Source of the DNA: an uncultured Eubacteriales bacterium
GTDB taxonomy: Bacteria > Bacillota > Clostridia > Oscillospirales > UBA644
Assembly (NCBI GenBank): GCA_934454405.1
Contig: CAKSFN010000006.1
Location: 10,503 to 74,502 of the forward strand
Reading direction: 5' to 3'
Length of the DNA: 64,000 nt
The translations under genes and the position numbers were made by a program. The notes beneath the pieces were generated by a model, which did not search any database, was not told where the DNA came from, and saw only the letters and a list, made by a program, of their open reading frames with translations. How positions within the stretch are numbered: position 1 is the first letter of the stretch; each line of letters opens with the position of its first letter. Shown here one piece after another: positions 10,249 to 61,673 of this stretch.

Positions 10249-10395
10249 GCCGCCGCGCTTTCGTTCCGCCGGACGCTCTGCCGCCGCGATTTCGCTTCGC
10301 CGAACGCTCTGCCGTCACGATTTCACTTCGCAGGACGCTCTGCCGCCGCGTTTTCGCTCCTCCGAACGCTTCGCCGCCGCGTTTTCGCTTCGCCG
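10249..10395. repeat. 5 x 31-bp GC-rich tandem repeat
   Basis: Units of the form CCGCCGCG(A/T)TTTCGCTTCGCCGAACGCTCTG, read directly after the addA stop. Confidence 0.85.
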
Positions 10396-10412
10396 AAAAA
10401 AAATATTAAGAT

Positions 10413-10473: not shown

Positions 10474-10502
10474 TTGACAAAGCTTTTCGTATGTATTATC
10501 AT
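10474..10502 (+). promoter_or_regulatory. Sigma-A type promoter
   Basis: TTGACA-17 nt-TATCAT upstream of the first lipoprotein gene. Confidence 0.55.
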
Positions 10503-10566
10503 ACAGACAGAGTGTTGCAATAGTCTGTCTTTTACGCTCCCGAAAAAAGGAAAGGATAAAGAAATT

Positions 10567-12111: not shown

Positions 12112-12321
12112 ACGGCGAACGACGCGAGATCCGACGCCCGCGACAGGCGCAGGGGGAAATAAGCCTATATCCGATTTGCGTTTGTGAATATTTTGCAAAC
12201 TGATGCGTTTTCGCGTCACAAAACCATTTGTAAAACGTTTGATATACTGAACGGGCAAATATCATTATTCAGAATATAAAAATATATTATTCATGCTCTC
12301 TCACATCAAAGGGGTTTTGAA

Positions 12322-13836
12322 ATGAAAAAAGCCGTCTCTTTTATTCTCCTTTTCGCTGTTCTTCTGACGCTGTTCTGCGCCTGCAAGAAAAACGGCGAAA
12401 CACAGCCGACTTCTTCGTCCGAACCGACAACGTGGGGCTTAATTCTCGACGAACTGCCCGACATCGGCAAGTATAAGCCGGCGACTTCGCCGCGAATGTT
12501 TGATAAGTACGTCGATAATCTTATCCCGCGCTCCGATTACGGCGAACTTGTGCCGTATCTCGGCGCCGTCGCGGATTACTTTTTCAATATCTCGGACGCC
12601 GCCGCGAACTACACAACGGTTAAAGACGGAACTTTTGCCGAAACGAAAGGGCTTTTCGGGCTTTGCCGCAAGGACGGAACTATTGTCACCGACCCTGTTT
12701 ATGCGTCCGTTCAATACTGCGACGGTTACTATCTGCTGAAAAAGGCTTCCGTCGATACGACGTATGACCCCTCTGATTTTCGCGGCAATTTTTATGTTGT
12801 TCCGAAAGACGGCTCTTCGATTTTTTCTTTCGGAAAAAACGTTTATGTCGAATACTGGGGCTGCGGAGTATTCCGCGCAATATATGACTGTGAAAACAAT
12901 AACGAAAAATATTATTCCGCGACGGGAAAACTGCTGCTCGACAACTCCGACGGCAATTATTTTCTGACACGTTTCACAAACGGTGTCGCGAGTCTCCTTT
13001 TTGACGGTCAGACACGCTTTGTCGATACTTCCTTTAAGACTTTGCTGACCGTTCCCGATGCGGAAATGCTTTCCGACAACGGATATTTTGCCGTGCTGAC
13101 GGACAGCGGAAAGTATATGATATACAAAGGCACAAAGCCGCTTTCGGACAGAAAATTCGATAAAAAACCCGCATACGATAACGGATATTTCCTTATCCGC
13201 GACGGAGAGTACGCCGTTGTGCTTGACGAAAAACTGAAAGAGGTCTCCCGTTTTCCCGTTGACCCTGCGGAAGAAGATATTTATTTATATTCCGCGAATG
13301 TTCTTTCCGTAGGCGGACGTTTGATAGACAACAGCGGAAAAAAACTTCCGTATGACTCTCTTTCGTATATCCCCGAACTGAAAATGTATGTGGGCGGCAA
13401 TTACGGAAGCGGTGAAAACGGAAGCGTCACATACCGCGTTGTTTCGAAGGACTTAAAAACACTTTATACCGCCCCGAAAGATTGGTATATCACTAATTTT
13501 AATATCGGCAGATATGTCGTTCTGAAACGCTCCCTTGACCCCGCCAACGGCGAAGTTTACGAAAATAGACTTGCGGACACCTCCGATTGGAGCATTGTCG
13601 AAAACGTTTTTCTTATCGACGGCTTTGACGGCTATTCTCTCCCGACCGAGGACGGCAGTCACCGCAACCTCTTTTCGGGCAAGGACGGCAAAGTTCTGCT
13701 GACGTATTCGACATTTTTCGCCGTGTCCGAAACCTCTCTCGGCACTCTGTATTTCTACGACCTCGACGGCTATGCCTATACAACAGACGCAAATCGGAAC
13801 GTGCTTTGCCGCACAACGATGAACGCAACAGACTGA
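12322..13836 (+). CDS. WG-repeat lipoprotein, paralogue B
   Basis: Lipobox LTLFCAC. N-terminal TTWG..LDELPDIGKYK and C-terminal GTLYFYDLDGYAYT..NVLCRTTMN are shared with paralogue C. Confidence 0.8.
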   Translation: MKKAVSFILLFAVLLTLFCACKKNGETQPTSSSEPTTWGLILDELPDIGKYKPATSPRMFDKYVDNLIPRSDYGELVPYLGAVADYFFNISDAAANYTTVKDGTFAETKGLFGLCRKDGTIVTDPVYASVQYCDGYYLLKKASVDTTYDPSDFRGNFYVVPKDGSSIFSFGKNVYVEYWGCGVFRAIYDCENNNEKYYSATGKLLLDNSDGNYFLTRFTNGVASLLFDGQTRFVDTSFKTLLTVPDAEMLSDNGYFAVLTDSGKYMIYKGTKPLSDRKFDKKPAYDNGYFLIRDGEYAVVLDEKLKEVSRFPVDPAEEDIYLYSANVLSVGGRLIDNSGKKLPYDSLSYIPELKMYVGGNYGSGENGSVTYRVVSKDLKTLYTAPKDWYITNFNIGRYVVLKRSLDPANGEVYENRLADTSDWSIVENVFLIDGFDGYSLPTEDGSHRNLFSGKDGKVLLTYSTFFAVSETSLGTLYFYDLDGYAYTTDANRNVLCRTTMNATD

Positions 13837-13988
13837 CGCGCGCCCGAAAAAGAAACGCACCGCCGTGCGGCTCGGTTGCAGCGAAAAAGGCAAGTCCGAA
13901 ACGCGCGATTTTTCAGATGATATATAAAGCGTTCGACAGGTGACCATGCCGTTGAATCGCAGATTTTCATATCAAAGGGGTTTTGACA

Positions 13989-15479
13989 ATGAAAAAAACC
14001 GTCTCTCTTCTTCTCCTTTTCGCGGTTCTTCTGACGCTGTTCTGCGCCTGCAAGAAAAATGAAACGCAGCAGCCAACCTCTTCGCCCGAACCGACAACGT
14101 GGGGCTTCATGCTCGACGAACTGCCCGACATCGGCAAGTATAAGTCGGCGGATTCGCCGCGAATGTTTGATAAGTACGTCGATAATCTTATCCCGCGTTC
14201 CGATTACGGCGAACTTATGCCGTATCTCGGCTCCGTTGTTCAATATGAGACCGCAGAGGTCGAAGATGTATATATGTCGGAAATGATTCGCGGCTACTAC
14301 GGTCTTTGCACCGTTGACGGCGTTATTGTGACCGATCCCGTTTACGACAGCATCGAATATTGCGACGGTTATTATCTGCTTGGAAAAAACCACAGCGGCG
14401 ACGATACCGAGACATCCGAAACTTTCCTGATACCGAAAGACGGTTCGTCAATATTCGAATTTCCGAAAAATAAATCCGTTTCTTATCGAGGAGACGGCAT
14501 TTTCAGTTGCTGTGAGGCTTCGTATGGAGCTGTCGATTCCGACACCTCTTATTATTCCGCAGCGGGAAAATATCTTTTCACGGCAGATGAAAGTTCCTCC
14601 GTTTCCGAGTTCGTCAACGGCACGGCGCTGCTGTACGCATACGGCTCGGACTTTAAGCTTGAATACTACATAATAAACAAGTCGGGCAAAAGAATCAAAA
14701 AATTCGAGTACGGCGTTGCAGGCGCCGCATCTACCGCACCCGGTGAGTTTGTTGTTTACGGTGCCGACGGAAAATGCGGGCTTTATCGCGGAGAAAAACA
14801 GATACTGCCTTGCGAATATGACAGTGTATGCTCCGATGATTACGGCAATATATTTGCGGTAAAGAATAAAACAGTCACCGTCTTTGACGAAAACAAAAAA
14901 GTGAAGACGACATTCGACATTTCGGGCAACTTTAATGCGAAGCGTATCAACCTTGACGGGGATCTCATTTCTGTCGGAGATCGGAACATGGTTTACAATT
15001 TTACGGGAGCTTCCCGTCAATGCGATTATGCGGACGAACTTGGCAATGGACTGTATTTGCTTCACATCGGCAGAAAGCAAACCGTTGTGGATAAAAACCT
15101 GAAAACCGTATGCGACGTGCCCGAAGACGGTCGCCCGCAAGCGTTCTTTGCAAGCGAAAAGTATATTCCGTGCCTGTTCAACGATGACGGAAGCGGTTAT
15201 TATTATCGGCTGCTCGACAAAAACAGCGGCAAACTTTCAGCCGAAGAATATCCTGAATTGCTGAACCGCAAATATCTTTTGAAAAAGAATGAGGACGGCA
15301 GCGGATTTTCCGTTATTGCCCCCGACGACCTCTCCGTTATTCGGACGTATGACACCTTTATTGATTCTGTCGAGACGTCCCGCGGCACATTGTATGTTTA
15401 CGACTGTGACGGCTATGTTTGGACGGTTGACTCCGATTGGAACGTGCTCTGCCGCACAACGATGAACCTCACGGATTAG
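13989..15479 (+). CDS. WG-repeat lipoprotein, paralogue C
   Basis: ATG 13989 has the same GGGGTTTTGA upstream context as paralogue B. Same lipobox, and the first ~230 nt are nearly identical to B. Confidence 0.8.
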   Translation: MKKTVSLLLLFAVLLTLFCACKKNETQQPTSSPEPTTWGFMLDELPDIGKYKSADSPRMFDKYVDNLIPRSDYGELMPYLGSVVQYETAEVEDVYMSEMIRGYYGLCTVDGVIVTDPVYDSIEYCDGYYLLGKNHSGDDTETSETFLIPKDGSSIFEFPKNKSVSYRGDGIFSCCEASYGAVDSDTSYYSAAGKYLFTADESSSVSEFVNGTALLYAYGSDFKLEYYIINKSGKRIKKFEYGVAGAASTAPGEFVVYGADGKCGLYRGEKQILPCEYDSVCSDDYGNIFAVKNKTVTVFDENKKVKTTFDISGNFNAKRINLDGDLISVGDRNMVYNFTGASRQCDYADELGNGLYLLHIGRKQTVVDKNLKTVCDVPEDGRPQAFFASEKYIPCLFNDDGSGYYYRLLDKNSGKLSAEEYPELLNRKYLLKKNEDGSGFSVIAPDDLSVIRTYDTFIDSVETSRGTLYVYDCDGYVWTVDSDWNVLCRTTMNLTD

Positions 15480-16802: not shown

Positions 16803-16963
16803 TTGCATAACAACAAAACACCCCAAATCTCCGTGTAGTGCGGGATAATGCTATCCCTCGTATGACATAAAAACCACAAATCCCCACATAATGCGAAATA
16901 ATGTTATTCCTTGCATAGCGACAAAACACCACAAATCCCGATAATTTCAATAATTCCTAATCC
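16803..16963. repeat. Degenerate ~50-57-bp tandem repeat (3 units)
   Basis: Units begin TTGCATAACAACAAAACACCCCAAATC, (T)ATGACATAAAAACCACAAATCC and TTGCATAGCGACAAAACACCACAAATCC. Read by eye. Confidence 0.6.
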
Positions 16964-16971
16964 GCATAAAA

Positions 16972-17011
16972 CCCCGCCCGCCCGAAAGACTTCTCTCTCG
17001 GACGGGCGGGG
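16972..17011 (+). terminator. GC-rich hairpin after the PstS-like gene
   Basis: CCCCGCCCG...CGGGCGGGG stem with an inner CCGA/TCGG pair. The T tract after it is weak. Confidence 0.5.
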
Positions 17012-17036
17012 CTCTTGCTTTGTATATCTTTGTTTT

Positions 17037-17136
17037 TTGTGCAGTCAACTGCACAAAGTCGTAAAAATCGTGCGTTTTGTGCAGTCAACCGCACAAATAT
17101 ATAAAAATCATCTGTTTTATGCAATCAACTGCACGA
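17037..17136. promoter_or_regulatory. Three 20-bp palindromes phased exactly 40 bp apart
   Basis: TTGTGCAGTCAACTGCACAA (17037), TTGTGCAGTCAACCGCACAA (17077) and TTATGCAATCAACTGCACGA (17117), with 9-bp arms and a 2-nt centre. Confidence 0.6.
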
Positions 17137-17282: not shown

Positions 17283-18506
17283 TTATATCAGATTGCTCGG
17301 AATAAAGCAGTTATCTTTGTCTATGGGTATCGGTTCTTCGCACATACAGATGATTCCGCCGTTTCCGCGATTCAGAGAAGCCTTGTCCAATACGCTGTAC
17401 TTTTTGATTTCACGACGGTCGGGTGCCGCGCTTTTTTTGATTTCCAACGGATGAATGACATTGTTTTCTTCAACAAACACATCAATTTCTTTTGCATTGG
17501 AATCTCGGAAGTAGGTGATGTTTACCTTTGACTTTGCGTAGGCATAGTTTTTAACAAGTTCCATTACAACATAGTTTTCATAGTAATGCCCGCTTGCGGC
17601 TCCGTTGCGCAGAGTATCCGGTGTCAGCCACATGGACAGATACGCACAAAGTCCCGTATCGCAGAAATACAGCTTCGGCGTTTTACTCAGCCGTTTGAGT
17701 TCATTGTTTGAATACGGCGCAAGAAGATAGACTATATTCAATCCGACAAGAATTTTCAGCCACTCTTTTGCTGTACTCGGTGCAATGTCGGCAGATTCCG
17801 CCAACGTTGAATAATTGACCTGCTCCGAAACAAGAGATGCGCAGCCCACAAGAAATTTGCGAAAACGAACGGTGTCTGTAATGCCGCCCGCTTCGGTGGC
17901 ATCACGCATAAGGTATGTGTCAATATAGGAATTGAAATACTCCTGTCTGAGTTCGTCCTCCACGCCCTGTATTTGGGGCATACCGCCCTCCCAAATGTGA
18001 TTGAATACTTGAACCACATCATTTTTCGGAAGTTTGCGTTGTCTTGCCTGTAATGTGGCGAGTGAGAAATCCAAATCTGTATCGAACACAAGTCCCGCTT
18101 TTTCTCTTGCGGACAAACTGTACAGTTCCAGAATTCCGATTCTTCCCGCAAGCGTCTCACGCACTTTCTTCATCATATTGTATTGTTGCGAGCCTGTAAG
18201 CCAGATAAGCCCTTTTTCGTTGCTCTCGTCGCAGATGATTTTGATTTGTTCGAACAATTCCGGCGCTTTCTGTACCTCATCAATGAGTATCGGAGGCTTA
18301 TATGTCTGAAAGAACAGCACAGGGTCGGACTGGGCAAGAGCTCTTATCATTGTATCGTCCATGGTGACATAAGTTCTGTCACTCTCTGCAAGGTGCTTTA
18401 ACATCGTCGTTTTGCCGACCTGCCTTGCACCCGTAACAAGAATAACATTGAAAAAATCATTAAGTTTTAAGAACTTGCGTTCAAGTTCCCGTGTAATATA
18501 TGCCAT
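17283..18506 (-). CDS. AAA ATPase with C-terminal PD-(D/E)xK-like module (DUF4143-type)
   Basis: Walker A GARQVGKTT, Walker B ILIDEVQ and a C-terminal EIDVFVE...LEIKKS. Start at MAYITREL (18506); the 88 upstream codons of the track ORF were rejected. Confidence 0.8.
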   Translation of the reverse strand: MAYITRELERKFLKLNDFFNVILVTGARQVGKTTMLKHLAESDRTYVTMDDTMIRALAQSDPVLFFQTYKPPILIDEVQKAPELFEQIKIICDESNEKGLIWLTGSQQYNMMKKVRETLAGRIGILELYSLSAREKAGLVFDTDLDFSLATLQARQRKLPKNDVVQVFNHIWEGGMPQIQGVEDELRQEYFNSYIDTYLMRDATEAGGITDTVRFRKFLVGCASLVSEQVNYSTLAESADIAPSTAKEWLKILVGLNIVYLLAPYSNNELKRLSKTPKLYFCDTGLCAYLSMWLTPDTLRNGAASGHYYENYVVMELVKNYAYAKSKVNITYFRDSNAKEIDVFVEENNVIHPLEIKKSAAPDRREIKKYSVLDKASLNRGNGGIICMCEEPIPIDKDNCFIPSNLI

Positions 18507-18546
18507 AATACACCTCGCATTTTTAGGATAATCTATGGTTAATCGT

Positions 18547-18575
18547 ATTTTATCATAATTTTCCCGTTTCGTCAA
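18547..18575 (-). promoter_or_regulatory. Sigma-A type promoter of the ATPase gene
   Basis: On the minus strand: TTGACG-17 nt-TAAAAT with TGn extension. Confidence 0.55.
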
Positions 18576-18634
18576 GAGGATATACGCAATTATGGTGATT
18601 ACTTTTTCAATTATGATATCGTCTGTTGCCGCTA

Positions 18635-18663
18635 TTGACAACCACCGCCGAATATTGTATAAT
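18635..18663 (+). promoter_or_regulatory. Sigma-A type promoter of nadE
   Basis: TTGACA-17 nt-TATAAT. Confidence 0.65.
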
Positions 18664-18705
18664 AAAATGTAAAATAACAGCAATCTGAAACAAGAGGATA
18701 ATACT

Positions 18706-20268
18706 ATGAAAATTTTGGCTGCGACATTTGTCGTTTCCGTCGGCAGACCGTTCCGCAACGCGGACGCCATGATGAAAGTTATGGACGAAAACGAAGCCGA
18801 TGTTTACCTTTTTCCCGCATACTGCCTGACCGGCGCAAGCTGCTCGGATCTGGCGCACTATAAGTGCTTTGCGGACGAGACCAACGAGGCTCTTGACAAA
18901 CTCTGCGAATATTCCGAAAAAACGGGCAAATGCTTTGTTACCGCCGTTTACGGCTACGATAATATTATCGTCAAGGGCGGCGACCTGATACAGAAACCCA
19001 CCGTAAAGATAGGCGGAAAGACCGTTATGGTCTCCGAGTCGGGCACGGAGACGAACGCCGACGTTCTGCTTCTTCCGACCGCAATGGACGGCTATCCATG
19101 CATTCAGAACGACATCATCGAGTTCTGCGCGGACGCGGCAAACAAACGTCATTGCGTTGTCGCTGTTGCAAACTGCGGCTTCGGCGAAAGTTCCGCGGAC
19201 CGCGTTTACAAGGGCTTTACGGGCATCTTTAACAGCGGCGTTATCGTTGATTTCAAAAGTCAGGAACGTCCCGAGACCGTTATCGCCTGCGCGGACAGCG
19301 ACAAAAAAACGGGACTTATCTACTCCCGCCCGAACAGGGGAACGGAGCGCATACCGTATTACGGCAAAAACGAGCCGTCCCGCTATCTGAACGAACTTTT
19401 CCTGCTTCAAACGCAGGCGCTCTATCAGCGCATAGTCGGTTCGGGACTGAAAAAAGCCGTTATCGGCGTCAGCGGCGGGCTTGATTCCACGCTTGCTCTG
19501 CTTGTTGCGGAAAACGCTTTCCGCATGGCGGGTCTGCCCACGGAAAATATTATCGCCATAACCATGCCCGGCTTCGGCACATCAGCAAGAACCCATTCGA
19601 ACGCCGACAGCCTGATGAAACTTCTCGGCTGCACCTGCCGCGAAATATCCATCGTCGGACCGACCAAAGCGATGTTTGAAGCGCTGGGACACGACGAGGC
19701 AAACAAGAACGTTGTTTACGAAAACGCACAGGCAAGAACCAGAGCGGATATCCTGTTCAACGTCGGCAACGCGGAGGGCGCATTCGTTGTCGGCACGGGC
19801 GACCTTTCGGAAGCCGCACTCGGCTGGTGCACGTTCGGCGGCGACGACCTCGCACATTACAACCCCAACGCTTCCGTTCCCAAAACGCTTGTCCGCGAAC
19901 TTGTAAAGAATATCGCTGCCACCCGCGGCGGCGACCTCGGCAAGGTGCTTACGGACATCGCCGAGACCCCGATAAGCCCCGAACTTGTCGAGGGACAGGA
20001 GACCGAAAAGAGCGTTGGCAAATACGAGCTTATCGACTTTATAATGTTCTTCTTCGCCAAACGCCGCGCCGCATATTCGGATATTAAAAATCTTTGCCTT
20101 GCCGTGTTTGAAGAACTTGACGAGGACGAGATAGTTTCGACGCTTGACCGTTTCTACGACCGTTTCAAGTCCAACCGCTTCAAGCGCGCCGCCGTTTTCG
20201 AGGGCGCGAACCTGCTCGGCTTCTCGCTGCCGTACTTCCCCGCGGATATAGATTACGAACTCATCTGA
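18706..20268 (+). CDS. nadE: Glutamine-dependent NAD+ synthetase
   Basis: N-terminal CN-hydrolase-like domain plus a PP-loop (GVSGGLDSTLAL). Confidence 0.85.
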   Translation: MKILAATFVVSVGRPFRNADAMMKVMDENEADVYLFPAYCLTGASCSDLAHYKCFADETNEALDKLCEYSEKTGKCFVTAVYGYDNIIVKGGDLIQKPTVKIGGKTVMVSESGTETNADVLLLPTAMDGYPCIQNDIIEFCADAANKRHCVVAVANCGFGESSADRVYKGFTGIFNSGVIVDFKSQERPETVIACADSDKKTGLIYSRPNRGTERIPYYGKNEPSRYLNELFLLQTQALYQRIVGSGLKKAVIGVSGGLDSTLALLVAENAFRMAGLPTENIIAITMPGFGTSARTHSNADSLMKLLGCTCREISIVGPTKAMFEALGHDEANKNVVYENAQARTRADILFNVGNAEGAFVVGTGDLSEAALGWCTFGGDDLAHYNPNASVPKTLVRELVKNIAATRGGDLGKVLTDIAETPISPELVEGQETEKSVGKYELIDFIMFFFAKRRAAYSDIKNLCLAVFEELDEDEIVSTLDRFYDRFKSNRFKRAAVFEGANLLGFSLPYFPADIDYELI

Positions 20269-20345: not shown

Positions 20346-21800
20346 ATGAAAAACAGAGTTTTTGCGTTTTTTCTTTCGCTTATTCTCATAACCGCGGCTT
20401 TTATCAGCCCCTCGCTCGCAAATTCCGCGCCGCGCTTTTGGCAGGGGACGGACACCTCGGGCGTTATCGCCGCGGCAGACGACTGCCCTCTTACCGTAGA
20501 GCGTGAAACGCTGACTTTCGATATCGGAGAGTTTCCGGATACGCATTACGAAAGCGAAAAGGGCTTTCTTGCTTACGCGGGAAAGGTTTCCGCCGAATAC
20601 GTTTTTCGCAATCCGACCGATTACAAGGTGACCGCAAAACTTGTCTTTCCTTTCGGAAATCCGCCGTTTTACGGAGAATTTTCGGACTCTGCCGCCGATA
20701 AGATATCCGTATCTTTTCCCGATACGGAAAAATACGGCGTCGCGGTTGACGGCAAACCTGCGGAGGCGACGGTTCGTTACACTTTCAAAAACAGGTATAC
20801 AGCCTTTTCTCTTGAAGAGGATATGCCGAGACTTTCGGACGGCTTTGTCTCCGACCCGTTTTTCCGCCCCGATCTGCCCGTCCGCACTCTTGTATATTCC
20901 GTCGAGGGGCTTGACGAGCGGCACAGCGCCGCAACGGCGGCTTTTGTGTACGGCTCAGATAAGTCCGAAACGCGCGTTCTTTGCGAATCGCAGAGCGGCG
21001 CGAATGTTTTGAAATCCGGCTATCAGATTTCCTGCTGGGTTAAAAACGGCGACACTCTCACGGTTCGTTTTTTCGGGGACCTTCCCGAAAAAGAACTGAA
21101 ATGGACGCTTTATGAAAACGGCGCCTGCGAAGATGTTATCGACGGAACCGTGACCCTGAAACATTCCGACGTCACGGCGTTTTCCGATTACGCTCTCGGT
21201 CAGTATTCAGCCGACGCGGAGATCCTTGATGTTGATAAATACAACGCCACGGTCGCTTTTCTGAATTATCTTTCGGAAGGCTCGGGAAAAGGTGTGATTT
21301 TTTGGGATAAATGGGACTTTTCCCTGATGCGGTGGTACGAGTATGAACTCTCTCTCGAACCGGGACAGACCCTGACGAACACGGTGACCGCGCCTCTTTA
21401 TCCGGACATCGACGCGAGTTATTCTCCGAGCGTTTACAGTTATAAATACCTACTTTCGCCCGCAAAAAAATGGGCGGATTTCGGCGAGTTGAAAATCGTT
21501 GTAAAAACCCCGTATTTTATCACGAAAAGCGGCATTGACGGCTTTTTCAAGACCGACACGGGGTATGAGCTTTCCCTGCCGGGGCTGCCCGATACGGAGC
21601 TGGAATTTTCGCTTTCCGCCTCCGAATCTCCGAAATATGTAAAAACGGGCTTTTTCAGTTCTTTCCCGGGCAAAATCATAGCCGTCGCCGCGCTTGTCCT
21701 TTTTGTGGGGATCCCCCTGCTTGTCGGCGCGACAGTATTCGCCGTGACCCTCCTGAAAAAGAGAAAGCGCGACCGAAAAACCACTTCTTGCGGCGAATGA
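20346..21800 (+). CDS. Secreted, C-terminally anchored protein of unknown function
   Basis: Signal peptide (..SPSLANSAP) and a single C-terminal TM helix followed by KKRKRDRK. Confidence 0.7.
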   Translation: MKNRVFAFFLSLILITAAFISPSLANSAPRFWQGTDTSGVIAAADDCPLTVERETLTFDIGEFPDTHYESEKGFLAYAGKVSAEYVFRNPTDYKVTAKLVFPFGNPPFYGEFSDSAADKISVSFPDTEKYGVAVDGKPAEATVRYTFKNRYTAFSLEEDMPRLSDGFVSDPFFRPDLPVRTLVYSVEGLDERHSAATAAFVYGSDKSETRVLCESQSGANVLKSGYQISCWVKNGDTLTVRFFGDLPEKELKWTLYENGACEDVIDGTVTLKHSDVTAFSDYALGQYSADAEILDVDKYNATVAFLNYLSEGSGKGVIFWDKWDFSLMRWYEYELSLEPGQTLTNTVTAPLYPDIDASYSPSVYSYKYLLSPAKKWADFGELKIVVKTPYFITKSGIDGFFKTDTGYELSLPGLPDTELEFSLSASESPKYVKTGFFSSFPGKIIAVAALVLFVGIPLLVGATVFAVTLLKKRKRDRKTTSCGE

Positions 21801-25004: not shown

Positions 25005-25440
25005 GTGCATAGCCTTTTTCTTTCCGCTTTGCGGAGTTTGCGTCGTTTTTCGCAGGCGAAAAGCCGAGCAAACAGTATTATCCGATTTTGGGCGAAGAAA
25101 AGCCCGTTTTCACAAGCCTGACAGTGTTGCTTTTGCCCTGTTTTATTGTCTCGTCGCTTAAAATACGAAAGTATTCTCGCACTCCTCGACTTCAAAACAG
25201 AACAAAATCAAGGCTGTCAGGTCGAAGAGTTTCACGGAGATAATGTTTTTCTCCGTGAAACGGTCACTTTGAAGCAATACTTTGTGTATTGCAAGAAGTG
25301 AACGCAATGCGGAGGGAAAGATTAGCCCGTGAAACCTTATGAGAACGGACTTTTCTTCGCCCTTACGCCGTGCGATAGTTCGTTCCTTCGAACGAACCGC
25401 ACATGGCTAATCGCAAAAAATGCAGCGGCTTTTTTGCGAT
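25005..25440 (+). repeat. Structured interspersed element, family 1, copy A (carries a nested insert)
   Basis: Its 79-nt left part and ~75-nt right part are near-identical to 26421-26585. The right part is the core ACGCCGTGCGA-[hairpin]-CGCACATGGCT-[hairpin]. Confidence 0.8.
25090..25362. repeat. Nested ~273-bp insert closed by an inverted repeat
   Basis: GGGCGAAGAAAAG(C)CCGTT..CAC at 25090 pairs with GTGAAAC...CGGACTTTTCTTCGCCC ending at 25362. It is absent from copy B. Its internal blocks match the insert at 62208-62482. Confidence 0.75.
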
Positions 25441-25508
25441 GCCGTAACCGCCCCGAAAGAGACCGTGCCGATCATCAGAAAATTGAGAAAGAGTTGAAGA
25501 TATATCAT
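25439..25508 (-). pseudogene. Duplicated, frame-broken 5' fragment of the downstream chrA
   Basis: 70 nt matching 24803-24873 with 2 substitutions and a 1-nt deletion. It keeps the ancestral ATGA overlap with the stop of the upstream chrA. Confidence 0.8.
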
Positions 25509-26104
25509 TTTTTGCCCCCTCTTTCCCGACATCTGCCGATAAGGTAGACCGCCACTCCGAGCGCGCCGCATATCAGAATGTAGAAAATCGAGGAGAACGA
25601 AACGGAGAACAGCGAAACCGCTGTCATGGCAGCCGCGACCGCGACAGCCACCGCGATATTGAACGCGTTTTTCTTCATTTCTTTCAGCATTTTCAGCCCT
25701 GCCGAGAATATCAGAAAGACCACTCCGACCCGTATGCCCTCAAATGCATAGCGGACGTATTCAAGCCCGAGGAATCTGTCCAAAAACAGCGAAATGACAT
25801 AGATTATAAAAAACGACGGCATACATATCGCCAAAGTCGCAACCGCCGAACCCGCAAGCCCGGCGATTTTACTTCCGATATAAGTCGCCGCGTTGACCGC
25901 GATGGGTCCCGGCGTCGATTCGGCGATAGCAACTATATCGAGGAACTCATCCTCGTCTATCCAATTCTTTTTGCCGACCAATTCGGCTTCCAGCAGGGCA
26001 ATCATTCCGTAACCGCCGCCGAACGTGAAAGCCCCGACCTTGAAAAAGGTGAGAAAGAGCGTCAAAAGGTTTTTAAGCTTGCTGTTTTTCATATTGTTTG
26101 ACAT
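25505..26104 (-). CDS. chrA: Chromate transporter family protein (first half-size subunit)
   Basis: 199 aa, multi-TM, with the FGGGYGMIALLE motif. Confidence 0.85.
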   Translation of the reverse strand: MSNNMKNSKLKNLLTLFLTFFKVGAFTFGGGYGMIALLEAELVGKKNWIDEDEFLDIVAIAESTPGPIAVNAATYIGSKIAGLAGSAVATLAICMPSFFIIYVISLFLDRFLGLEYVRYAFEGIRVGVVFLIFSAGLKMLKEMKKNAFNIAVAVAVAAAMTAVSLFSVSFSSIFYILICGALGVAVYLIGRCRERGGKK

Positions 26105-26182
26105 CTGTTATTTTATCCGCGAAAATAATATTTATATTCCCGATATTTCGTCTCGCCGCTTCGTCTCCGCTCCGCGGCTTCG

Positions 26183-26234
26183 CCGCCGCTCAACTCTCGC
26201 AACGACGCTTCGCGCCGTCCGAGGTTTCGCGGAA
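26183..26234. repeat. 52-bp GC-rich repeat, copy 1 of 3
   Basis: CCGCCGCTCAACTCTCGCA.CG.C...CGCGCCGTCCGAGGTTTCGCGGAA. Further copies are at 27248 and 27408. Confidence 0.75.
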
Positions 26235-26420
26235 AACAAAAAAGATACCATTGTTCAGAAAAACAAACCAAAAGTAATTGATGTTTTTTTTCGGTTATAT
26301 CGGCAAGTGCGAAAAGTGTTTGCGGAGCAAACAGGGGAATTGCTGAAAAGACGAAGCTATTTGTTAAATACGCAAAGTACGGAATCTGTTAGCTGAAGCA
26401 CACAGGGGACTCCCCGAAAT

Positions 26421-26585
26421 GTGCATAGCCTTTTTCTTTCCGCTGCGCGGAGTTTGCGTCGTTTTTCGCAGGCGAAAAGCCGAGCAAACGGTATTATCCT
26501 ATTTTTATACGCCGTGCGATAGTTCGCGCATACGCGCAAACCGCACATGGCTAATCGCAAAAAATGCAGCGGCTTTTTTGCGATG
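26421..26585 (+). repeat. Structured interspersed element, family 1, copy B (no nested insert)
   Basis: Same left and right parts as copy A. The inner hairpin differs (GCGC-ATAC-GCGC versus GTTCGTTC-CTTC-GAACGAAC) but stays paired. It ends 1 nt before the stop of the next gene. Confidence 0.8.
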
Positions 26586-41676: not shown

Positions 41677-43236
41677 ATGGACGATTTTGAAAAAAACGAA
41701 CTCAATATAAACGAGGCTGAGTCTGCGGAACGCAAGCGCCTTGACGCGGAGAATGCGGCAGCGGCGGCTTCATCCGCGCAGACAGACGGTCAGGCAGCCC
41801 CTTTGCAGCCCTCCGCTCAACCGCGATACGCCTACGACCCGCAAACGGGCGAGCGCTATGAGGTCGGCACAGGACCCGAACCCCACGCGCCTGCGGCACA
41901 GCTGTCATATCACAGCCCGAGCCCGACTTACGCCGCTCCCGGTCAGACGCGTCCGCAGCCTCCGCGTTATGAATATTCGTATCGCAACGGTCAGCCGCAG
42001 ACCAATTATAATTACGGCGGCGAACACGGCTACGGCAGAGTTGCTCCGAACGGAACGTATTCATATTCCGCTCCGCAGCAGCCTCCGAGACCTCCCAAAA
42101 AGCCGAAAGAGAAAAAGAAGTTCGGCATCGGCGCCGTTTGCGCGCTGCTTGTCGCGGCGGTAATCTTTTCAGCCGGTCTCGGCATCGGCGGCTCGTATAT
42201 GCTTTTCGGCAGAAACGGCACATCGGGCGGCTCGCAGTCCCCGTCGGGCGGCAGCACCGTCATTTACGAAAGCACCGAACCCAAAGTTGACACCTCCTCC
42301 GTCGCGGGCAGCACGGACACCGCAAAAGTCGTCGCGGCTGTCGAAAACTCCGTCGTCGAGATAACAACGGAGACCGTCACCACCTCGAATTTCTTCGGTC
42401 AGTACGTCACACAGGGCGCAGGCAGCGGTGTTGTTGTCAGCTCGGACGGATATATAGTCACGAACAATCACGTCGTTGACGGCGCAACAAATATAAAAGT
42501 CACGCTCGCAAACAAAACGACCTATGACGCCACGGTTGTCGGCACGGACGAAAAAACCGACATCGCCGTTGTGAAAATCAACGCAACGGGTCTGACGCCT
42601 GCGGTATTCGGCGACTCCTCGCAGATAGTTGTCGGACAGGACGTTGTCGTTATCGGCAACCCGCTCGGCTCGCTCGGCGGAAGCGTCACCAAGGGCATTG
42701 TCAGCGCGCTGGACCGTCAGATAACGATAGACAATCAGACGATGACTCTTTTGCAGATTGACGCAGCTGTCAACCCCGGCAACTCCGGCGGCGGCGCGTT
42801 CGACGCAAAAGGTAACCTCATCGGCATAGTCAACGCAAAATCGACGGGCTCGAATATAGACAACCTCGGCTTCGCAATCCCCGTCAACACCGCAAAAGCG
42901 GTTATAAACGATATTATCAAATACGGTTACGTTACGGGCAGGATCTCAACGGGCTTTGAACCCATAGACCTTACCGACCGCGCAACCGCGATAAGTTACC
43001 GTGTTTCAAGAACCGGTATATATGTATACAAGGTCACGGACAACGCCTCCCCGTTCAGAAGCGGCGACCTGCTTGTCAGCATGGACGGCACGGTCATCAG
43101 CTCGATGTCGGACTACAACTCCGTCGTTGACGCCCACAAGATAGGCGACACGATAGACGTAACCGTTATCAGAAACGGCGAACAGAGAACTCTTTCGCTG
43201 ACCTTCGGTGAATACGTCCCGTCGCAGAACGGCTGA
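41677..43236 (+). CDS. HtrA/DegP-like serine protease with PDZ domain
   Basis: Pro/Gln-rich N-terminus and a TM helix. Catalytic TNNHV, DIAVVK and GNSGG, plus a C-terminal PDZ-like region. Confidence 0.88.
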   Translation: MDDFEKNELNINEAESAERKRLDAENAAAAASSAQTDGQAAPLQPSAQPRYAYDPQTGERYEVGTGPEPHAPAAQLSYHSPSPTYAAPGQTRPQPPRYEYSYRNGQPQTNYNYGGEHGYGRVAPNGTYSYSAPQQPPRPPKKPKEKKKFGIGAVCALLVAAVIFSAGLGIGGSYMLFGRNGTSGGSQSPSGGSTVIYESTEPKVDTSSVAGSTDTAKVVAAVENSVVEITTETVTTSNFFGQYVTQGAGSGVVVSSDGYIVTNNHVVDGATNIKVTLANKTTYDATVVGTDEKTDIAVVKINATGLTPAVFGDSSQIVVGQDVVVIGNPLGSLGGSVTKGIVSALDRQITIDNQTMTLLQIDAAVNPGNSGGGAFDAKGNLIGIVNAKSTGSNIDNLGFAIPVNTAKAVINDIIKYGYVTGRISTGFEPIDLTDRATAISYRVSRTGIYVYKVTDNASPFRSGDLLVSMDGTVISSMSDYNSVVDAHKIGDTIDVTVIRNGEQRTLSLTFGEYVPSQNG

Positions 43237-43382: not shown

Positions 43383-44152
43383 TATTTCTTTCTCTTGGAA
43401 ACTCGGCTCCGCTTCGGTGGGGTCGAGTTTCATTTTAATAATATATATGAAAGTATTTAGTTTGCGCAGGGAAAAATAGTTCGGCGAAATAAATTCGCCG
43501 AAGACCGGTCGATCCGATACGCCGTGCGAAATTGTTGCTGCGCAACACGCACATGGCTGTTCTCAAAACGGCGGCGCGTTTTGAGATTTTCTTTCTCTTG
43601 GAAGAGGGGCTTCACTTCGGTGAAGTTTCTCTTCATTTTAATAATATATATGAAAGTATTTAATTTGCGCAGGGAAACATAGTTCGGCGAAATAAATTCG
43701 CCGAAGATATATTGATTTGATACGCCGTGCGAAATTGTTGCTGCGCAACACGCACATGGCTGTTCTCAAAACGACGGTGCGTTTTGAGAGTTTCTTTCTC
43801 TTGGAAGTGCGGCTCTGCTTTTGCAGGGTCGCGCTTCACTTTATTTATATGTATTGTATTTAAGTGTTTAGTTTTCGCAAGGAGTAATAGTTCGGCGAAC
43901 TAAATTCGCCGAAGACCGGTCGATCCGATACGCCGTGCGAAATTGTTGCTGCGCAACACGCACATGGCTGTTCTCAAAACGGCGGCGCGTTTTGAGAGTT
44001 TCTTTCTCTTGGAAACTCGGCTCCGCTTCGGTGGGGCCGAGTTTCACTTTATTCTCTTGGAAGTGCGGCTCCGCTTCGGTGGGGTCGAGTTTCATTTTAA
44101 TAATATATATGAAAGTATTTAGTTTGCGCAGGGAAACATAGTTCGCCGAAGA
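43383..44152 (+). repeat. Tandem array (about 3.7 units of 203-208 bp) of hairpin-dense, apparently non-coding units
   Basis: CTCTTGGAA recurs at 43392, 43595, 43798, 44006 and 44054. Each unit holds 5 hairpins in a fixed order. The first hairpin has three unrelated but fully paired sequence variants. Confidence 0.9.
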
Positions 44153-44192: not shown

Positions 44193-44221
44193 TTGACAAA
44201 TCCTTTTGTTAGGTGTATAAT
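44193..44221 (+). promoter_or_regulatory. Consensus sigma-A promoter of the GNAT gene
   Basis: TTGACA-17 nt-TATAAT. Confidence 0.7.
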
Positions 44222-44265
44222 GTTCTGTAAAATTTGCAACGTATGCTTTATAAAAGGAGAAGATA

Positions 44266-45018
44266 ATGGAATTTATACGTCTCTCTCATGAAAATCTTGA
44301 TACCGAGCATATCTGCTGCGCAATTTCGAACAACAAGGACGTTCAGGTATCGTCGAAAAAAGCGTGGCTTGCGGAACGTCTTGACGAGGGGCTTGTTTTT
44401 CTGAAAGGCAATGTCCGCGGTAAATGTTTTATCGAATATATCCCCGCTGAAAACGCGTGGGCGCCGATAGCCGCCGACGGGTATATGTATATTGACTGTC
44501 TTTGGGTCTCGGGACAATTCAAGGGACACGGATATTCCTCCGAACTGCTTGCCGAATGTATTCGGGACAGCCGCGAAAAAGGGAAAAAGGGGCTTTGCGT
44601 TCTGTCTTCGAAAAAGAAACACGGTTTTTTGTCCGACCCGAAATATCTTCTTTATAAAGGCTTCAAACCTGCCGACGCGGCGTCTCCGTATTTTGAACTT
44701 TGGTATTTGCCGTTTGACGAATCGGCAGAAATTCCGCAATTCCGCGCTTGCGTGAACGAGCCCGCGCCAATGTCCGACGGTTTTACTCTTTTTTACACTT
44801 CGCAATGTCCGTTTACCGCAAAGTATGTTCCTCTGCTATGCGCCGCCGCCGAAAAACGCGGCGTAAAACTGACGTCCGTTCATATTGATACACGCGAAGC
44901 CGCACAAAACGCCCCATGCCCGTTTACGACCTTTTCACTTTGGCACAACAGCAATTTCATCACGCATGAGATTCAGTCCGTCCCCAAATTCGAAAAAATC
45001 ATCGACGGCATAGTCTGA
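44266..45018 (+). CDS. GNAT N-acetyltransferase with YoaP-like C-terminal domain
   Basis: Acetyl-CoA motif region (VSGQFKGHGYSSELL) and a C-terminal ..LFYTSQCPF.. region as in YoaP-type proteins. RBS AAGGAGA. Confidence 0.7.
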   Translation: MEFIRLSHENLDTEHICCAISNNKDVQVSSKKAWLAERLDEGLVFLKGNVRGKCFIEYIPAENAWAPIAADGYMYIDCLWVSGQFKGHGYSSELLAECIRDSREKGKKGLCVLSSKKKHGFLSDPKYLLYKGFKPADAASPYFELWYLPFDESAEIPQFRACVNEPAPMSDGFTLFYTSQCPFTAKYVPLLCAAAEKRGVKLTSVHIDTREAAQNAPCPFTTFSLWHNSNFITHEIQSVPKFEKIIDGIV

Positions 45019-45054
45019 CCCCACTCAACAAAAGTGCTTTTCGCACCGTCCGTA

Positions 45055-45168
45055 AAAAAAATCTTTCGGAATGAAAATCCAAAATCCTGCGGAATGAAAC
45101 CTCGAAATCTTTCGGAATGAAATCACGAAATCCTGCGGAATGAAATCTTGAAATCTTTCGGAATGGTA
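45055..45168. repeat. 5 x 23-bp tandem repeat abutting the -35 box
   Basis: CGGAATGAAA at 45067, 45090, 45113, 45136 and 45159 (the last copy is degenerate: CGGAATGGTA). Units alternate CTTTCGG and CCTGCGG, giving a 46-bp super-unit. Confidence 0.85.
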
Positions 45169-45197
45169 TTGATATTTTTCAAAAATTGTGGTATACT
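45169..45197 (+). promoter_or_regulatory. Sigma-A type promoter
   Basis: TTGATA-17 nt-TATACT. Confidence 0.6.
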
Positions 45198-45226
45198 GTA
45201 ACCGAAAAGATGAAAGAGGTGGTTTG

Positions 45227-46510
45227 ATGAACGCTTCCGAAAGAAATAAATACAGACCGCGGATAATAGATACCCGTGTTGAAAAATATCTGAAAAACTT
45301 CGGTGCCGTCTGCATCGAGGGACCAAAATGGTGCGGCAAAACATGGACTTCCTCCTATCATTGCAAAAGCGAATTTATGATAGGCGACCCTCGGAACGAT
45401 TTTCAGAACAGACAACTTGCGGAAATTTCACCGTCGGTGGTTCTTGACGGAGAAACCCCGCGCCTTTTGGACGAGTGGCAGGAAGTTCCGTCGCTTTGGG
45501 ACGCCGTTCGCTACACCGTTGATAAACGCGCCGAAAAGGGGCAGTTCATTTTAACGGGGTCGTCAACTCCGAAACGCAAGGGAATTATGCATAGCGGCGC
45601 CGGACGCATAGGAAAGATTCGAATGCGAACGATGTCTTTGTATGAGTCGGGCGATTCTTCCGGTAAAGTTTCTCTGCGTGACCTTTGCAACGGAAAAATA
45701 ACTCCCGCCGTAACGGGCGAGGTGGATCTGCATTCTCTCATATATTATATAGTTCGCGGCGGTTGGCCGGGAAATCTCGGCGTTCTGCCCGAAGACGCGC
45801 AGCTTCTGCCCGAATCGTATATAACCGCGATTCTTGACGACGACGCGCAAAGACTTGACGGCAAAAAATACGACAAACGAAAAATGCGTCTGTTGCTTTG
45901 CTCTCTTGCGAGAAACGAAAGCACGACCGCTTCCAACACAAAACTTCTGAACGATATAAAGGGTTTTGAGGACTGCTCCGTTGACAAGGATACGGTCAGC
46001 GATTATCTTGATGTTTTCGACCGCCTGTTTTTGCTTGACGACCAACCCGCATTTTCTTCGAATATAAGGTCGTCCGTTCGCTTGAAACAGTCCGTAAAAC
46101 ACCATTTTTGTGACCCCGCGCTTGCGTGCGCATTGCTGAAAGCGACGCCCGAAAGGCTTCTGAACGATCTTGAAACACTCGGCTTTATGTTTGAAAGTCT
46201 CTGTGAACGGGACTTGAGGATATATGCCGAATCTTTCGGCGCAAACCTTTTCCATTATCAGGATTATCAGGGCAGGGAAGTTGATGCCGTCATTGAGCTT
46301 GACAACGGCGATTGGTGCGCGTTTGAAATAAAACTCGGCGCAAAACAAATCGAAACCGCCGCGCAGAATCTTGTTGCATTGCGGGATTCCGTTGCGGAAA
46401 ACGGCGGCAAAGCTCCGTCCGTTTTGTGCGTTGTCTGCGGCATGAGCAGCGCGGCATACGTTCGTCCCGACGGCGTATTTGTCGTTCCCGTAACCGCGCT
46501 GAAAGATTGA
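45227..46510 (+). CDS. AAA ATPase with C-terminal PD-(D/E)xK-like module (DUF4143-type)
   Basis: Walker A GPKWCGKTWT and a C-terminal EVDAVIE...AFEIKLG. Start at MNASERNK, after GAGGTGG. Confidence 0.8.
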   Translation: MNASERNKYRPRIIDTRVEKYLKNFGAVCIEGPKWCGKTWTSSYHCKSEFMIGDPRNDFQNRQLAEISPSVVLDGETPRLLDEWQEVPSLWDAVRYTVDKRAEKGQFILTGSSTPKRKGIMHSGAGRIGKIRMRTMSLYESGDSSGKVSLRDLCNGKITPAVTGEVDLHSLIYYIVRGGWPGNLGVLPEDAQLLPESYITAILDDDAQRLDGKKYDKRKMRLLLCSLARNESTTASNTKLLNDIKGFEDCSVDKDTVSDYLDVFDRLFLLDDQPAFSSNIRSSVRLKQSVKHHFCDPALACALLKATPERLLNDLETLGFMFESLCERDLRIYAESFGANLFHYQDYQGREVDAVIELDNGDWCAFEIKLGAKQIETAAQNLVALRDSVAENGGKAPSVLCVVCGMSSAAYVRPDGVFVVPVTALKD

Positions 46511-61434: not shown

Positions 61435-61508
61435 GCGGGTGTAGTTCAATGGTAGAACCCTAGCCTTCCAAGCTAGTCGCGTGGGTTCGATTCCCATCAC
61501 CCGCTCCA
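61435..61508 (+). tRNA. tRNA-Gly (anticodon TCC)
   Basis: Hand-folded cloverleaf. Acceptor GCGGGTG/CACCCGC, anticodon stem CTAGC/GCTAG with loop CTTCCAA, encoded CCA. Confidence 0.9.
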
Positions 61509-61515
61509 TTTATGT

Positions 61516-61592
61516 GTGCTTGTAGCTCAGCCGGATAGAGCATCTGCCTTCTAAGCAGAGGGTCGGGGGTTCGAGTCCCTTCAAGCACGCCA
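61516..61592 (+). tRNA. tRNA-Arg (anticodon TCT)
   Basis: Acceptor GTGCTTG/CAAGCAC, anticodon stem TCTGC/GCAGA with loop CTTCTAA, GGTTCGAGTCC T-loop, encoded CCA. Confidence 0.9.
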
Positions 61593-61595
61593 TAC

Positions 61596-61673
61596 GGTGG
61601 GTATAGCTTAGTTGGTTAAAGCGCCAGTTTGTGGCACTGGAGATCGAAGGTTCGAATCCCTTTACCCACCCCA
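61596..61673 (+). tRNA. tRNA-His (anticodon GTG) with encoded G-1
   Basis: Extra 5' G, acceptor GTGGGTA/TACCCAC, anticodon stem CCAGT/ACTGG with loop TTGTGGC, encoded CCA. Confidence 0.88.

Follow-up and report, generated by a model that had tools for sequence, protein, structure and literature searches.

What kind of element sits in the gap between an htrA-like serine protease gene and a yoaP-like acetyltransferase gene in an uncultured Eubacteriales bacterium (GTDB lineage Clostridia; Oscillospirales; UBA644)? The gap lies in a 64,000-nt stretch of contig CAKSFN010000006.1 (GenBank assembly GCA_934454405.1, positions 10,503 to 74,502 of the forward strand), referred to below as the window, and holds a tandem array of hairpin-dense units. 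An earlier note, made from the letters of the sequence alone, had left three options for this array: a multi-copy structured RNA locus, a stack of terminator or insulator modules, or a DNA-level recombination or binding array. We find that the unit is not one entity. Each array unit is a composite that joins a copy of the htrA terminator to one member of E, a previously undescribed family of hairpin-rich repeat elements that occur at dispersed loci. Of the three options the DNA-level recombination array fits best, with a terminator module in each unit.

Composite units downstream of htrA

Tandem Repeats Finder places the array at 43385-44053 (period 203, 3.3 copies, 83% matches, score 950) and lists a 48-bp duplication at 44004-44099 as a second entry. 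The array begins within the 3' untranslated region of the htrA-like gene and lies in the 1029-bp gap between this gene (41677-43236) and the yoaP-like gene (44266-45018); its 3.3 copies, with a unit length of 203-208 bp, span a 770-bp stretch (43385-44152). The word CTCTTGGAA recurs at 43392, 43595, 43798, 44006 and 44054, TTTCTTTCTCTTGGAA occurs four times where 0.09 occurrences are expected, and the palindrome TTCGGCGAA-N5-TTCGCCGAA occurs three times where none is expected. The tandem array of ~205-bp units reported in the earlier note is thus borne out at levels far above chance. All six parts that it had listed for the unit (CU tract, first hairpin, AT-rich palindrome, perfect hairpin and the hairpins here numbered 5 and 6) were found in the order given, but not in every unit: TTTCAT-N13-ATGAAA is present in units 1 and 2 and in the last partial unit, and is lacking in unit 3. 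In a CRISPR array, identical short repeats (~24-48 bp) alternate with unique spacers that are about as long as the repeats; here the repeat is the entire 203-bp unit and unique spacers are lacking, so that the array was rightly said not to be a CRISPR.

The first hairpin of each unit had been described as terminator-like on the + strand with a stem of 10-12 bp. Its terminator-like character holds at five + strand sites in the array, although the stem is 15 bp long; the loop is UUCG or UUUU, and a tail rich in T follows. The array region contains 12 terminator-like sites, against 3.1 +/- 2.1 in shuffled sequences. Each copy of the hairpin includes three G-U pairs and therefore pairs on the + strand only (the other strand has C-A mismatches), which suggests that the copies work as + strand RNA. 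A CU tract (ATTGCTTGYTYGTGTTTTTTTCATATTTCTTTCTCTTG) and a terminator are located directly 3' of htrA in every clade, including those with other element types, and follow htrA in relatives whose HtrA proteins are 68-89% identical to that of the window. This indicates that the tract and hairpin are the end of the htrA transcript and that the later copies in the array repeat it.

Within the window, the terminator stems T1, T2 and T3 are only 50-64% identical to each other, whereas the adjacent palindrome-plus-core segments are 91-98% identical. To judge from these identities, the contrast is hard to explain by divergence in place and readily understood if recombination has united terminator alleles (T1, T2 and T3) that stem from different lineages. 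The structure-preserving variants of this hairpin, which had been read as compensatory, are real, but they would be ordinary terminator alleles and not covariation within one RNA family. The half-module near the end of the array was correctly recognised as a chimera (44060-44093), with a 5' arm that begins like variant 3 and a remainder that matches variant 1. Another chimera of the same kind is found in L162 (L numbers denote loci of relatives), and the pair of T1 and chimera closes the array in all same-species contigs.

A dispersed repeat family with a sharp 3' end

The remaining part of each unit belongs to E. Its core measures 85-100 nt, ends sharply on the 3' side and combines invariant single-stranded motifs with two hairpins that covariation supports. 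This core runs from ...GATTGAATACGCC through hairpin 5 (in two parts, with bulges of 4 nt and of 2 nt, AU) and CATGGCTGTTC to hairpin 6, which reads YCTC-AAAAC...GTTTT-GAGR and ends in ...TTTTG(A/C)GA(G/T/A). Approximately 100 nt, from GATACGCCG to ...CGTTTTGMGAG, are conserved between the A-type units of the window and the B-type units found in some relatives (see below), with compensatory changes from GTGCG/CGCAC to GCGCG/CGCGC and from CTCAAAACG/CGTTTTGAG to CGCAAAACG/CGTTTTGCG. An alignment of 14 distinct cores was constructed and used to build a covariance model, R1. In this alignment 98.8% of the cells of the two-hairpin structure are paired and four pairs have changed on both sides; none of 500 shuffles reached the observed values, and slid controls paired at 29-54%. 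The unpaired segments ATACGCC, GAAA and CATGGCTGTTC are invariant. The expectation that covariation would hold once more copies were added is therefore confirmed, though it is located in parts 5 and 6 of the unit, the conserved core.

Upstream of the core the 5' modules of E are interchangeable. In the clade with 78% HtrA identity (L142), the palindrome has the variant form TTCGGCGGA-N5-TCCGCCGAA, with one change in each arm and pairing kept. A third, C type has a full length of ~165 nt and shares with the B type its 5' hairpin (hairpin 1), a long bulged hairpin (hairpin 2) and the linker AAACSGTATTWTCCKATTTTKATAC; hairpins 1 and 2, with the same bulges, are kept in B- and C-type copies through compensatory changes.

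A blastn search with one unit returned no additional copy in the window, and diverged copies required the covariance model. Model R1 recovered the three array copies (96-100 bits) and two further + strand copies, both of the C type (Table 1). These lie antisense inside an operon of a small multidrug exporter gene and two ChrA genes, with no terminator after them. One abuts the stop codon of the minus-strand small multidrug export gene and the other is split by a 274-bp insertion (25090-25363) with 13-bp inverted repeats at its ends. These terminal repeats (GGGCGAAGAAAAG / CTTTTCTTCGCCC) are perfect and the insertion resembles a transposable element of the miniature inverted-repeat class (MITE), of which no second copy was found in the window or any fetched locus. 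The 480-bp spacer between the exporter and chrA genes holds, within 26105-26420, a GC-rich 19-bp repeat (26154-26191), and a + strand TTGACA-17-GAAAAT site (26098-26126) is located upstream of the C-type element.

Scanning metagenome contigs with a core-derived pattern yielded 18 loci, half of which are htrA arrays. Elsewhere the core is found after pnp (L149, L153, L161 and L163), after a gene for a 570-amino acid protein (L151, L157 and L158), between pdxK and a vat-type (hexapeptide-repeat) acetyltransferase gene (L150), and after another gene at a separate locus (L155). The 570-amino acid protein has no Pfam match and its gene lies 3.2 kb upstream of a phage capsid gene, a position in which it is likely to be a phage portal gene; a search of IMG/VR with the portal-like protein returned no relative. 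Model R1 identified a second, inverted copy of E on the opposite side of the portal-like gene in L151. One 127-kb contig holds both an htrA array and a portal-type copy, and in all the sequence examined there are ~8 distinct E loci. No terminator follows E in L150 or L161, and the copies at pnp, vat, chrA and the portal-like gene lack the array's CU tract and terminator. This indicates that the tract and terminator are duplicated target DNA and not part of the conserved element.

Similarity across loci stops one or two bases past hairpin 6 (...TTTTGAGAG, ...GCGAG or ...GAGAT), and the DNA that follows is very often a second copy of sequence lying upstream of E. At htrA this repeat is the CU tract and terminator. 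At pnp it comprises 115 bp (the last 55 nt of the gene and its terminator), and on the right side of the portal-like gene there is a direct match of 262 bp (gene end, terminator and spacer start), or ~330 bp with a weaker spacer copy. The left side of the portal-like gene has a mirror-image repeat of at least 81 bp from the 5' part of the gene, and in L161 repeats of 75 bp flank E together with a Bro-N gene. No direct repeats were found around the vat gene. The ATG of the portal-type element that is in frame with the duplicated gene end was dismissed as a coincidence, as the pnp-type element has a stop codon there. In L155, E is located at a different locus with the portal-derived segment still attached and cut at the same boundary, showing that the element and its captured segment travelled as a single piece; in both L155 and L151 one period of E plus portal-derived segment is bounded on both sides by the same CACC/GCACC. 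The 3' end of the core abuts a different upstream point in L140. This suggests that the 3' end is the fixed partner of the joint and the upstream point the variable one.

Between the two copies of a repeat, 7-19% of positions differ and every type of substitution is seen; by this measure the copies resemble alleles that come from different lineages more than recent duplications. The template and variable repeats of diversity-generating retroelements differ only at template adenines and have a reverse transcriptase gene nearby. As the substitutions between the copies are of all types and not adenine-specific, the copies are no such template and variable pairs; no reverse transcriptase gene was detected either, and a diversity-generating retroelement was ruled out. 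At several loci accessory genes are found just past E: a GNAT (yoaP) and a DUF4143 ATPase gene in the window, vat in L150, Bro-N in L161, AbiE in L149 and HipA in L151. The intervals between pnp and plsY (with AbiEii/AbiEi genes directly after E in L149 and L163, and Bro-N in L161) and between the portal-like and capsid genes (with a HipA-like kinase gene in L151) resemble insertion hot spots.

The array is hypervariable. Independent human-gut metagenome contigs that encode an identical HtrA or YoaP have a gap with three, one or no complete units, or a contig break inside it. We also scanned GTDB species-representative genomes with a pattern made from the CU tract and terminator tail; the pattern is loose and 119 of the 120 stretches it returned are chance matches in AT-rich DNA, the sole real one being in the uncultured Clostridiales metagenome-assembled genome UMGS964 (L044), which has the same gene order as the window. 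The nearest named HtrA homologue, from Anaeromassilibacillus, is 55% identical. One to three complete units are present in the clade with 89% HtrA identity; the 78% clade has the first terminator and then the palindrome variant; the 68% clade has the different, B-type unit; and one relative with 71% identity has no array. Across 27 contigs with zero to three complete units, T1, T2 or T3 may stand first, and the orders T2-T3, T3-T2, T1-T3, T3-T1, T1-T1-T3 and T2-T3-T3-T3 were seen, as were chimeric hairpins. Differing terminator orders cannot be attributed to assembly collapse. Expansion and contraction of the array in relatives, which the earlier note had named as a sign against its idea, was therefore seen, yet it takes the form of ordered mosaicism and not of random drift. 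In L144 the flanking genes are 75-76% identical to those of the window and the A-type unit is 93% identical, while its close relatives L139 and L145 have the B type at the same site, which points to lateral exchange.

To the right of the array, yoaP and the DUF4143 gene are each present or absent among relatives, and the yoaP-like gene is a variable cargo. Comparison with L133, L134, L136, L139 and L145 shows a small variable island (44266-46510), which consists of yoaP and the DUF4143 gene in the window and of yoaP only in some relatives; both genes are missing from the 68% clade. L134 has the yoaP sequence, possibly disrupted, with no gene called there. The next conserved gene to the right of the island is a glycosyltransferase gene.

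Table 1. Coordinates of the array, of its flanking genes and of the two further E copies in the window (R1, covariance model of the E core; T1 to T3, terminator alleles).
Feature	Position	Strand	Basis
Second C-type copy of E, between two minus-strand chrA genes	25005..25441	+	R1 match 25353-25440, 40 bits, E-value = 1e-7
Full-length diverged C-type copy of E: hairpin 1, long bulged hairpin 2, conserved linker, hairpins 5 and 6	26421..26585	+	R1 match 26497-26584, 47.6 bits, E-value = 2e-9
htrA-like serine protease gene (Trypsin_2 and PDZ)	41677..43236	+	Pfam; synteny kept in all relatives
htrA's own 3' CU tract (TTTCTTTCTCTTGGAA) and intrinsic terminator T1 (stem 43398-43431, UUCG loop, T tail)	43385..43440	+	Terminator scan; relatives
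Unit 1, A-type 5' module: AT-rich stretch, TTTAGTTTGCGCAGGGAAAAATAG, perfect palindrome TTCGGCGAA-ATAAA-TTCGCCGAA (43480-43502)	43441..43506	+	Sequence comparison
E core copy 1: two-part hairpin 5, linker CATGGCTGTTC, hairpin 6, sharp 3' end ...TTTTGAGAT	43507..43587	+	R1, 96.4 bits, E-value = 8e-21; covariation
CU tract and terminator allele T2 (stem 43601-43634)	43588..43643	+	Terminator scan, identity comparison
Unit 2: 5' module (palindrome 43683-43705) and E core copy 2 (43710-43790)	43644..43790	+	R1, 99.9 bits
CU tract and terminator allele T3 (stem 43804-43837, UUUU loop)	43791..43846	+	Terminator scan, identity comparison
Unit 3: 5' module in a different AT-rich version (palindrome 43891-43913) and E core copy 3 (43918-43998)	43847..43998	+	R1, 97.2 bits
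CU tract and terminator allele T1' (stem 44012-44045)	43999..44051	+	Terminator scan, identity comparison
Extra 48-bp half-module: shortened CU tract and chimeric T3/T1 hairpin with weaker pairing	44052..44093	+	Tandem Repeats Finder period 48, terminator scan
Truncated fourth 5' module, palindrome collapsed to TTCGCCGAAG; then unique DNA and the yoaP promoter	44094..44151	+	Sequence comparison
yoaP-like GNAT acetyltransferase gene (44266-45018) with perfect TTGACA-17-TATAAT promoter (44193-44221)	44193..45018	+	Pfam, promoter scan, relatives

Known systems and competing explanations

A search of the window against Rfam 15 at the gathering threshold identified only three tRNAs, and E-value scans of the array, a B-type locus and the C-type region gave only sub-threshold noise (best NmsRb, 25 bits against a cutoff of 52, and istR, 30 against 45). 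With no family matched, the view that the unit could not be placed in a known RNA family stands. Searches of IMG/VR, INPHARED and PLSDB with the core returned no match, and literature searches for comparable elements yielded nothing relevant. E is a structured intergenic repeat with unusual junction behaviour that has the defining features of none of the known kinds for which these could be checked.

REP/BIME, ERIC and Correia repeats come close in several respects. They too are short, gene-less hairpin repeats located in intergenic DNA after gene ends, in either orientation and sometimes clustered, their stems are kept by compensatory change, and they can serve as terminators or recombination substrates. 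REP/BIME repeats are imperfect palindromes of 20-40 nt with a conserved 5' tetranucleotide, are present in many copies per genome and are linked to RAYT genes. E differs in being longer (85-170 nt), in having several distinct hairpins with long invariant unpaired motifs, and in lacking both a GTAG-type REP motif and terminal inverted repeats. It is known from only ~8 loci, its sharp 3' end is followed by long repeats of upstream DNA, and no RAYT gene was seen in the 64 kb or the fetched fragments. A MITE carries terminal inverted repeats and a short target-site duplication. E is unlike one: its 3' end (TTTTGMGAG) is no inverted copy of its 5' ends, which are GTGCATAGCC, CCGCAGGA or a T-run followed by hairpin 1. 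Two other candidates were rejected: group II intron domains V/VI, because neither the lower helix nor the bulge position nor the loop agrees and the Rfam intron model gave no match, and a CsrA sponge, as there are about two GGA motifs per unit and they lie outside loops. To our knowledge, the combination of a sharp 3' end, long upstream repeats, stacking of terminator alleles and exchange between species is found in no standard class of bacterial repeat.

The reading that we favour, with slightly less than even confidence, is that the array is a recombinogenic or mobile structured DNA repeat that has been amplified together with the terminator. We infer that E acts at the DNA level. E would be a gene-less DNA module whose hairpins and invariant motifs form the recognition structure for a trans-acting enzyme, which probably acts on single-stranded or extruded DNA and would create or resolve a DNA end exactly at the 3' boundary of E. 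DNA ending at E would be joined upstream of a resident homologous sequence; the joined DNA may be a circle in which the 3' end of E has closed onto a point upstream, or it may come from another strain as a fragment that homology within the upstream gene holds in place. As the outcome, 50-330 bp from upstream of E would reappear right after E as an allelic repeat. At htrA, repeated events of this kind and out-of-register homologous recombination between near-identical E copies would produce a (terminator-E)n stack that varies in length and terminator order from strain to strain. The predicted + strand terminator copies would stay functional, and the stack would insulate htrA from yoaP.

Several observations weigh against this reading. 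No transposase, integrase or reverse transcriptase was detected among the 30 window open reading frames (ORFs) scanned against Pfam, and no candidate enzyme partner was found in the window or the fetched flanks. No flanking duplication is present at the two C-type copies and the joints have no consistent microhomology or target motif; lacking terminal inverted repeats, a short target duplication and a conserved target motif, E fits no defined transposon class. The passage through a circle or a DNA end is a step that we infer, and repeat collapse in short-read assemblies could explain some of the copy-number differences. Furthermore, E is found at the same htrA site in clades with flanks that are ~75% identical, and this retention of the site, together with the conserved unpaired segments, looks more like a structured RNA that benefits its host than like selfish DNA. 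The arrangement of B-type units, with TG-n-GATAAT (an extended -10 motif) before them and a terminator after them, is plausibly that of a small-RNA (sRNA) gene.

The array may accordingly be weighed as a set of sibling sRNA genes, a possible but on the whole unlikely explanation in which each unit encodes a structured RNA of ~190 nt (5' hairpins, core, a single-stranded CU tract, UUUCUUUCUCUUGG, that could pair with AGGAG-like ribosome-binding sites, and a terminator) and copies elsewhere are paralogues or decayed. Listeria LhrC1-4, Neisseria NmsRa/b and Pseudomonas PrrF1/2 likewise have head-to-tail units of 100-200 bp that end in a terminator, with variable stems and a conserved pyrimidine-rich single-stranded tract just before the terminator. 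Such genes would account for the strong + strand UUCG-loop terminators that end every unit (the five sites described above), the covarying hairpins with invariant single-stranded motifs, the identity of the CU tract even where HtrA is only 68% identical, and the persistence of the element at the htrA locus over ~25% nucleotide divergence. There is also a weak architectural likeness to the tandem Neisseria sRNA NmsRb (the sub-threshold match of 25 bits), and B-type units are preceded by TTGCAC/TGTACC-18-TGcGATAAT. However, this B-type motif fails a simple promoter scan in L145 and lies outside the element boundaries, and the window units have no promoter match of their own. A scan covering sigma-70-like sites found none on the + strand in 43385-44152, in agreement with the earlier statement that there is no sigma-A promoter within a unit, and a by-eye comparison of the A-type unit with promoters of sigma-A, sigma-54, sigma-H, sigma-D, sigma-F/G and extracytoplasmic function sigma factors gave none that fits in both sequence and spacing. 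Unlike in the sibling sRNA loci, the tract and terminator are copied from the 3' end of the neighbouring gene: they also end htrA, and they are missing from the core copies at pnp, the portal-like gene, vat and chrA, those at chrA being antisense in an operon and terminator-less. The core has two G-U pairs and two C-A mismatches and favours neither strand, so that a strand call on this basis was dropped. An independent RNA gene is disfavoured because of the missing A-type promoter, the borrowed tract and terminator, the mixed orientation and the copies that lack a terminator.

If the core is instead a cis-acting DNA site, either a recombinase attachment or crossover site (attC/attI-like) or a nick or packaging site (oriT/pac-like), then terminator, 5' module and core together would form shuffled cassettes, or the core would mark a DNA end that seeds the insertion of accessory genes. 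We consider this doubtful. The sharp 3' boundary, the accessory genes just past the core, the permuted terminator cassettes and the matching CACC/GCACC bounds in L155 and L151 all agree with it, and E shares with integron attC sites the primacy of structure over sequence, a sharp 3' crossover boundary, reordered cassettes and adjacent accessory genes. An attC site folds into one imperfect hairpin that carries extrahelical bases and the R''/L''/L'/R' boxes, and is served by an intI/attI platform. Hairpin 6 loosely resembles the R''/R' boxes, but E has two independent hairpins joined by a conserved linker and not one long bulged hairpin, its "cassettes" are gene-less, no attI was found and no integrase gene lies near any copy, the genes upstream of the array being housekeeping genes. 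Moreover, the yoaP junction falls inside a truncated unit and not at the 3' end of the core, the phage and plasmid collections hold no match, and homologous recombination between repeats also yields permutations.

A somewhat less probable explanation still is that E is a new mobile element that moves via a nucleic-acid intermediate with a fixed 3' end, either rolling-circle or reverse-transcribed (SINE-like). If this were true, terminators and gene 3' ends of different lineages would be captured and stacked, sites for defence and resistance genes would be opened, and the htrA array would be a chronological stack of events. A related possibility is that E forms an RNA scaffold and that the 3' extension of this RNA is a copy of sequence from the adjacent gene. 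The IS200/IS605-derived PATEs, IS91/ISCR and Helitron-like elements also lack terminal inverted repeats and a short target duplication and have subterminal hairpins that would be recognised in single-stranded DNA, and rolling-circle elements have one fixed and one variable end, capture adjacent DNA and form head-to-tail arrays by one-ended transposition. Besides their subterminal hairpins, these elements have a conserved tetranucleotide at the target or cleavage site, and their host genome encodes a Y1/HUH enzyme. Among the scanned ORFs of the window and fetched flanks there was no HUH gene, nor was a TnpA, TnpB or Rep gene found, and no flanking tetranucleotide is conserved; in addition, the end hairpins of E are mutually unrelated and its captured DNA lies upstream and is recopied downstream.

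A passive minisatellite, formed by chance duplication of the htrA terminator and slippage with the hairpins as terminator relics, is very improbable. The copy number does vary between near-identical strains and the window is rich in tandem repeats, but the core occupies at least six unrelated loci, the window alone has two diverged types of it, its stems show compensatory substitutions beside invariant unpaired motifs, and a near-identical unit is common to species with 75%-identical flanks. Hardly credible, finally, is the idea that the units contain modules for small proteins or for type I toxin-antitoxin pairs of the kind known from the E. coli LDR and Sib/Ibs repeats. LDR and QUAD (Sib) loci were likewise first seen as unexplained structured intergenic repeats of a few hundred bp, a size and hairpin-rich tandem layout that the array resembles, and gene callers place a 106-amino acid minus-strand ORF across it. 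Those loci encode type I toxins and antisense RNAs, whereas no small ORF is conserved in the array. There is no credible ORF inside the units and none with a ribosome-binding site; no ORF is conserved between A- and B-type units and no hydrophobic peptide is encoded; the ATG of a 59-amino acid minus-strand ORF is not conserved and is absent in B-type relatives; and hairpin substitutions would mean radical amino-acid changes. As the period is not a multiple of 3, reading frames are broken by the 203-bp period and a 5-nt indel. Small ORFs on either strand were rejected as unconserved, and the units are, as had been suspected, apparently not coding. Both the passive satellite and the small-ORF module are essentially excluded.

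Other features of the window and implications of the repeat family

Tandem 23-bp repeats (AAATCTTTCGGAATGAAA...) are located at 45059-45165, just upstream of the DUF4143 ATPase gene. Such repeats, in varying copy number, lie upstream of a DUF4143 ATPase or a family 4 glycosyltransferase gene in all relatives (L134, L139, L140, L144 and L145), and could be a regulator-binding array. Two adjacent AT-rich tandem arrays (53 bp x 2.5 and 40 bp x 2.5; 16803-17134) border another DUF4143/AAA_14 ATPase gene (17283-18770, minus strand) at its 3' end, so that both DUF4143 genes of the window sit beside tandem repeats. GC-rich 31-bp tandem repeats are present at 1154-1261 and 10249-10397 (3.5 and 4.8 copies), one adjoining a DUF4317 gene and the other at the end of an addA-like gene. 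The three tRNA genes form a cluster at 61435-61670 (Rfam tRNA, 66-71 bits), and four large ORFs (484-545 amino acids; 10474-15479 and 20346-21800) have no Pfam match at an E-value <= 1e-5.

Non-coding elements in uncultured human-gut Clostridia are almost unexplored, and E is a multi-hairpin, covariation-supported family from these bacteria that is absent from Rfam and from phage and plasmid collections. All copies recognised to date come from one narrow clade of uncultured gut Clostridia. The array at htrA is a hypervariable strain marker, at which short-read assemblies break. If E is an RNA, it would be a new conserved structured RNA beside an envelope-stress protease gene. If E directs DNA joining, it would constitute an unrecognised route by which the 3' ends of genes, and acetyltransferase, AbiE, HipA and Bro-N genes, are shuffled among gut strains.

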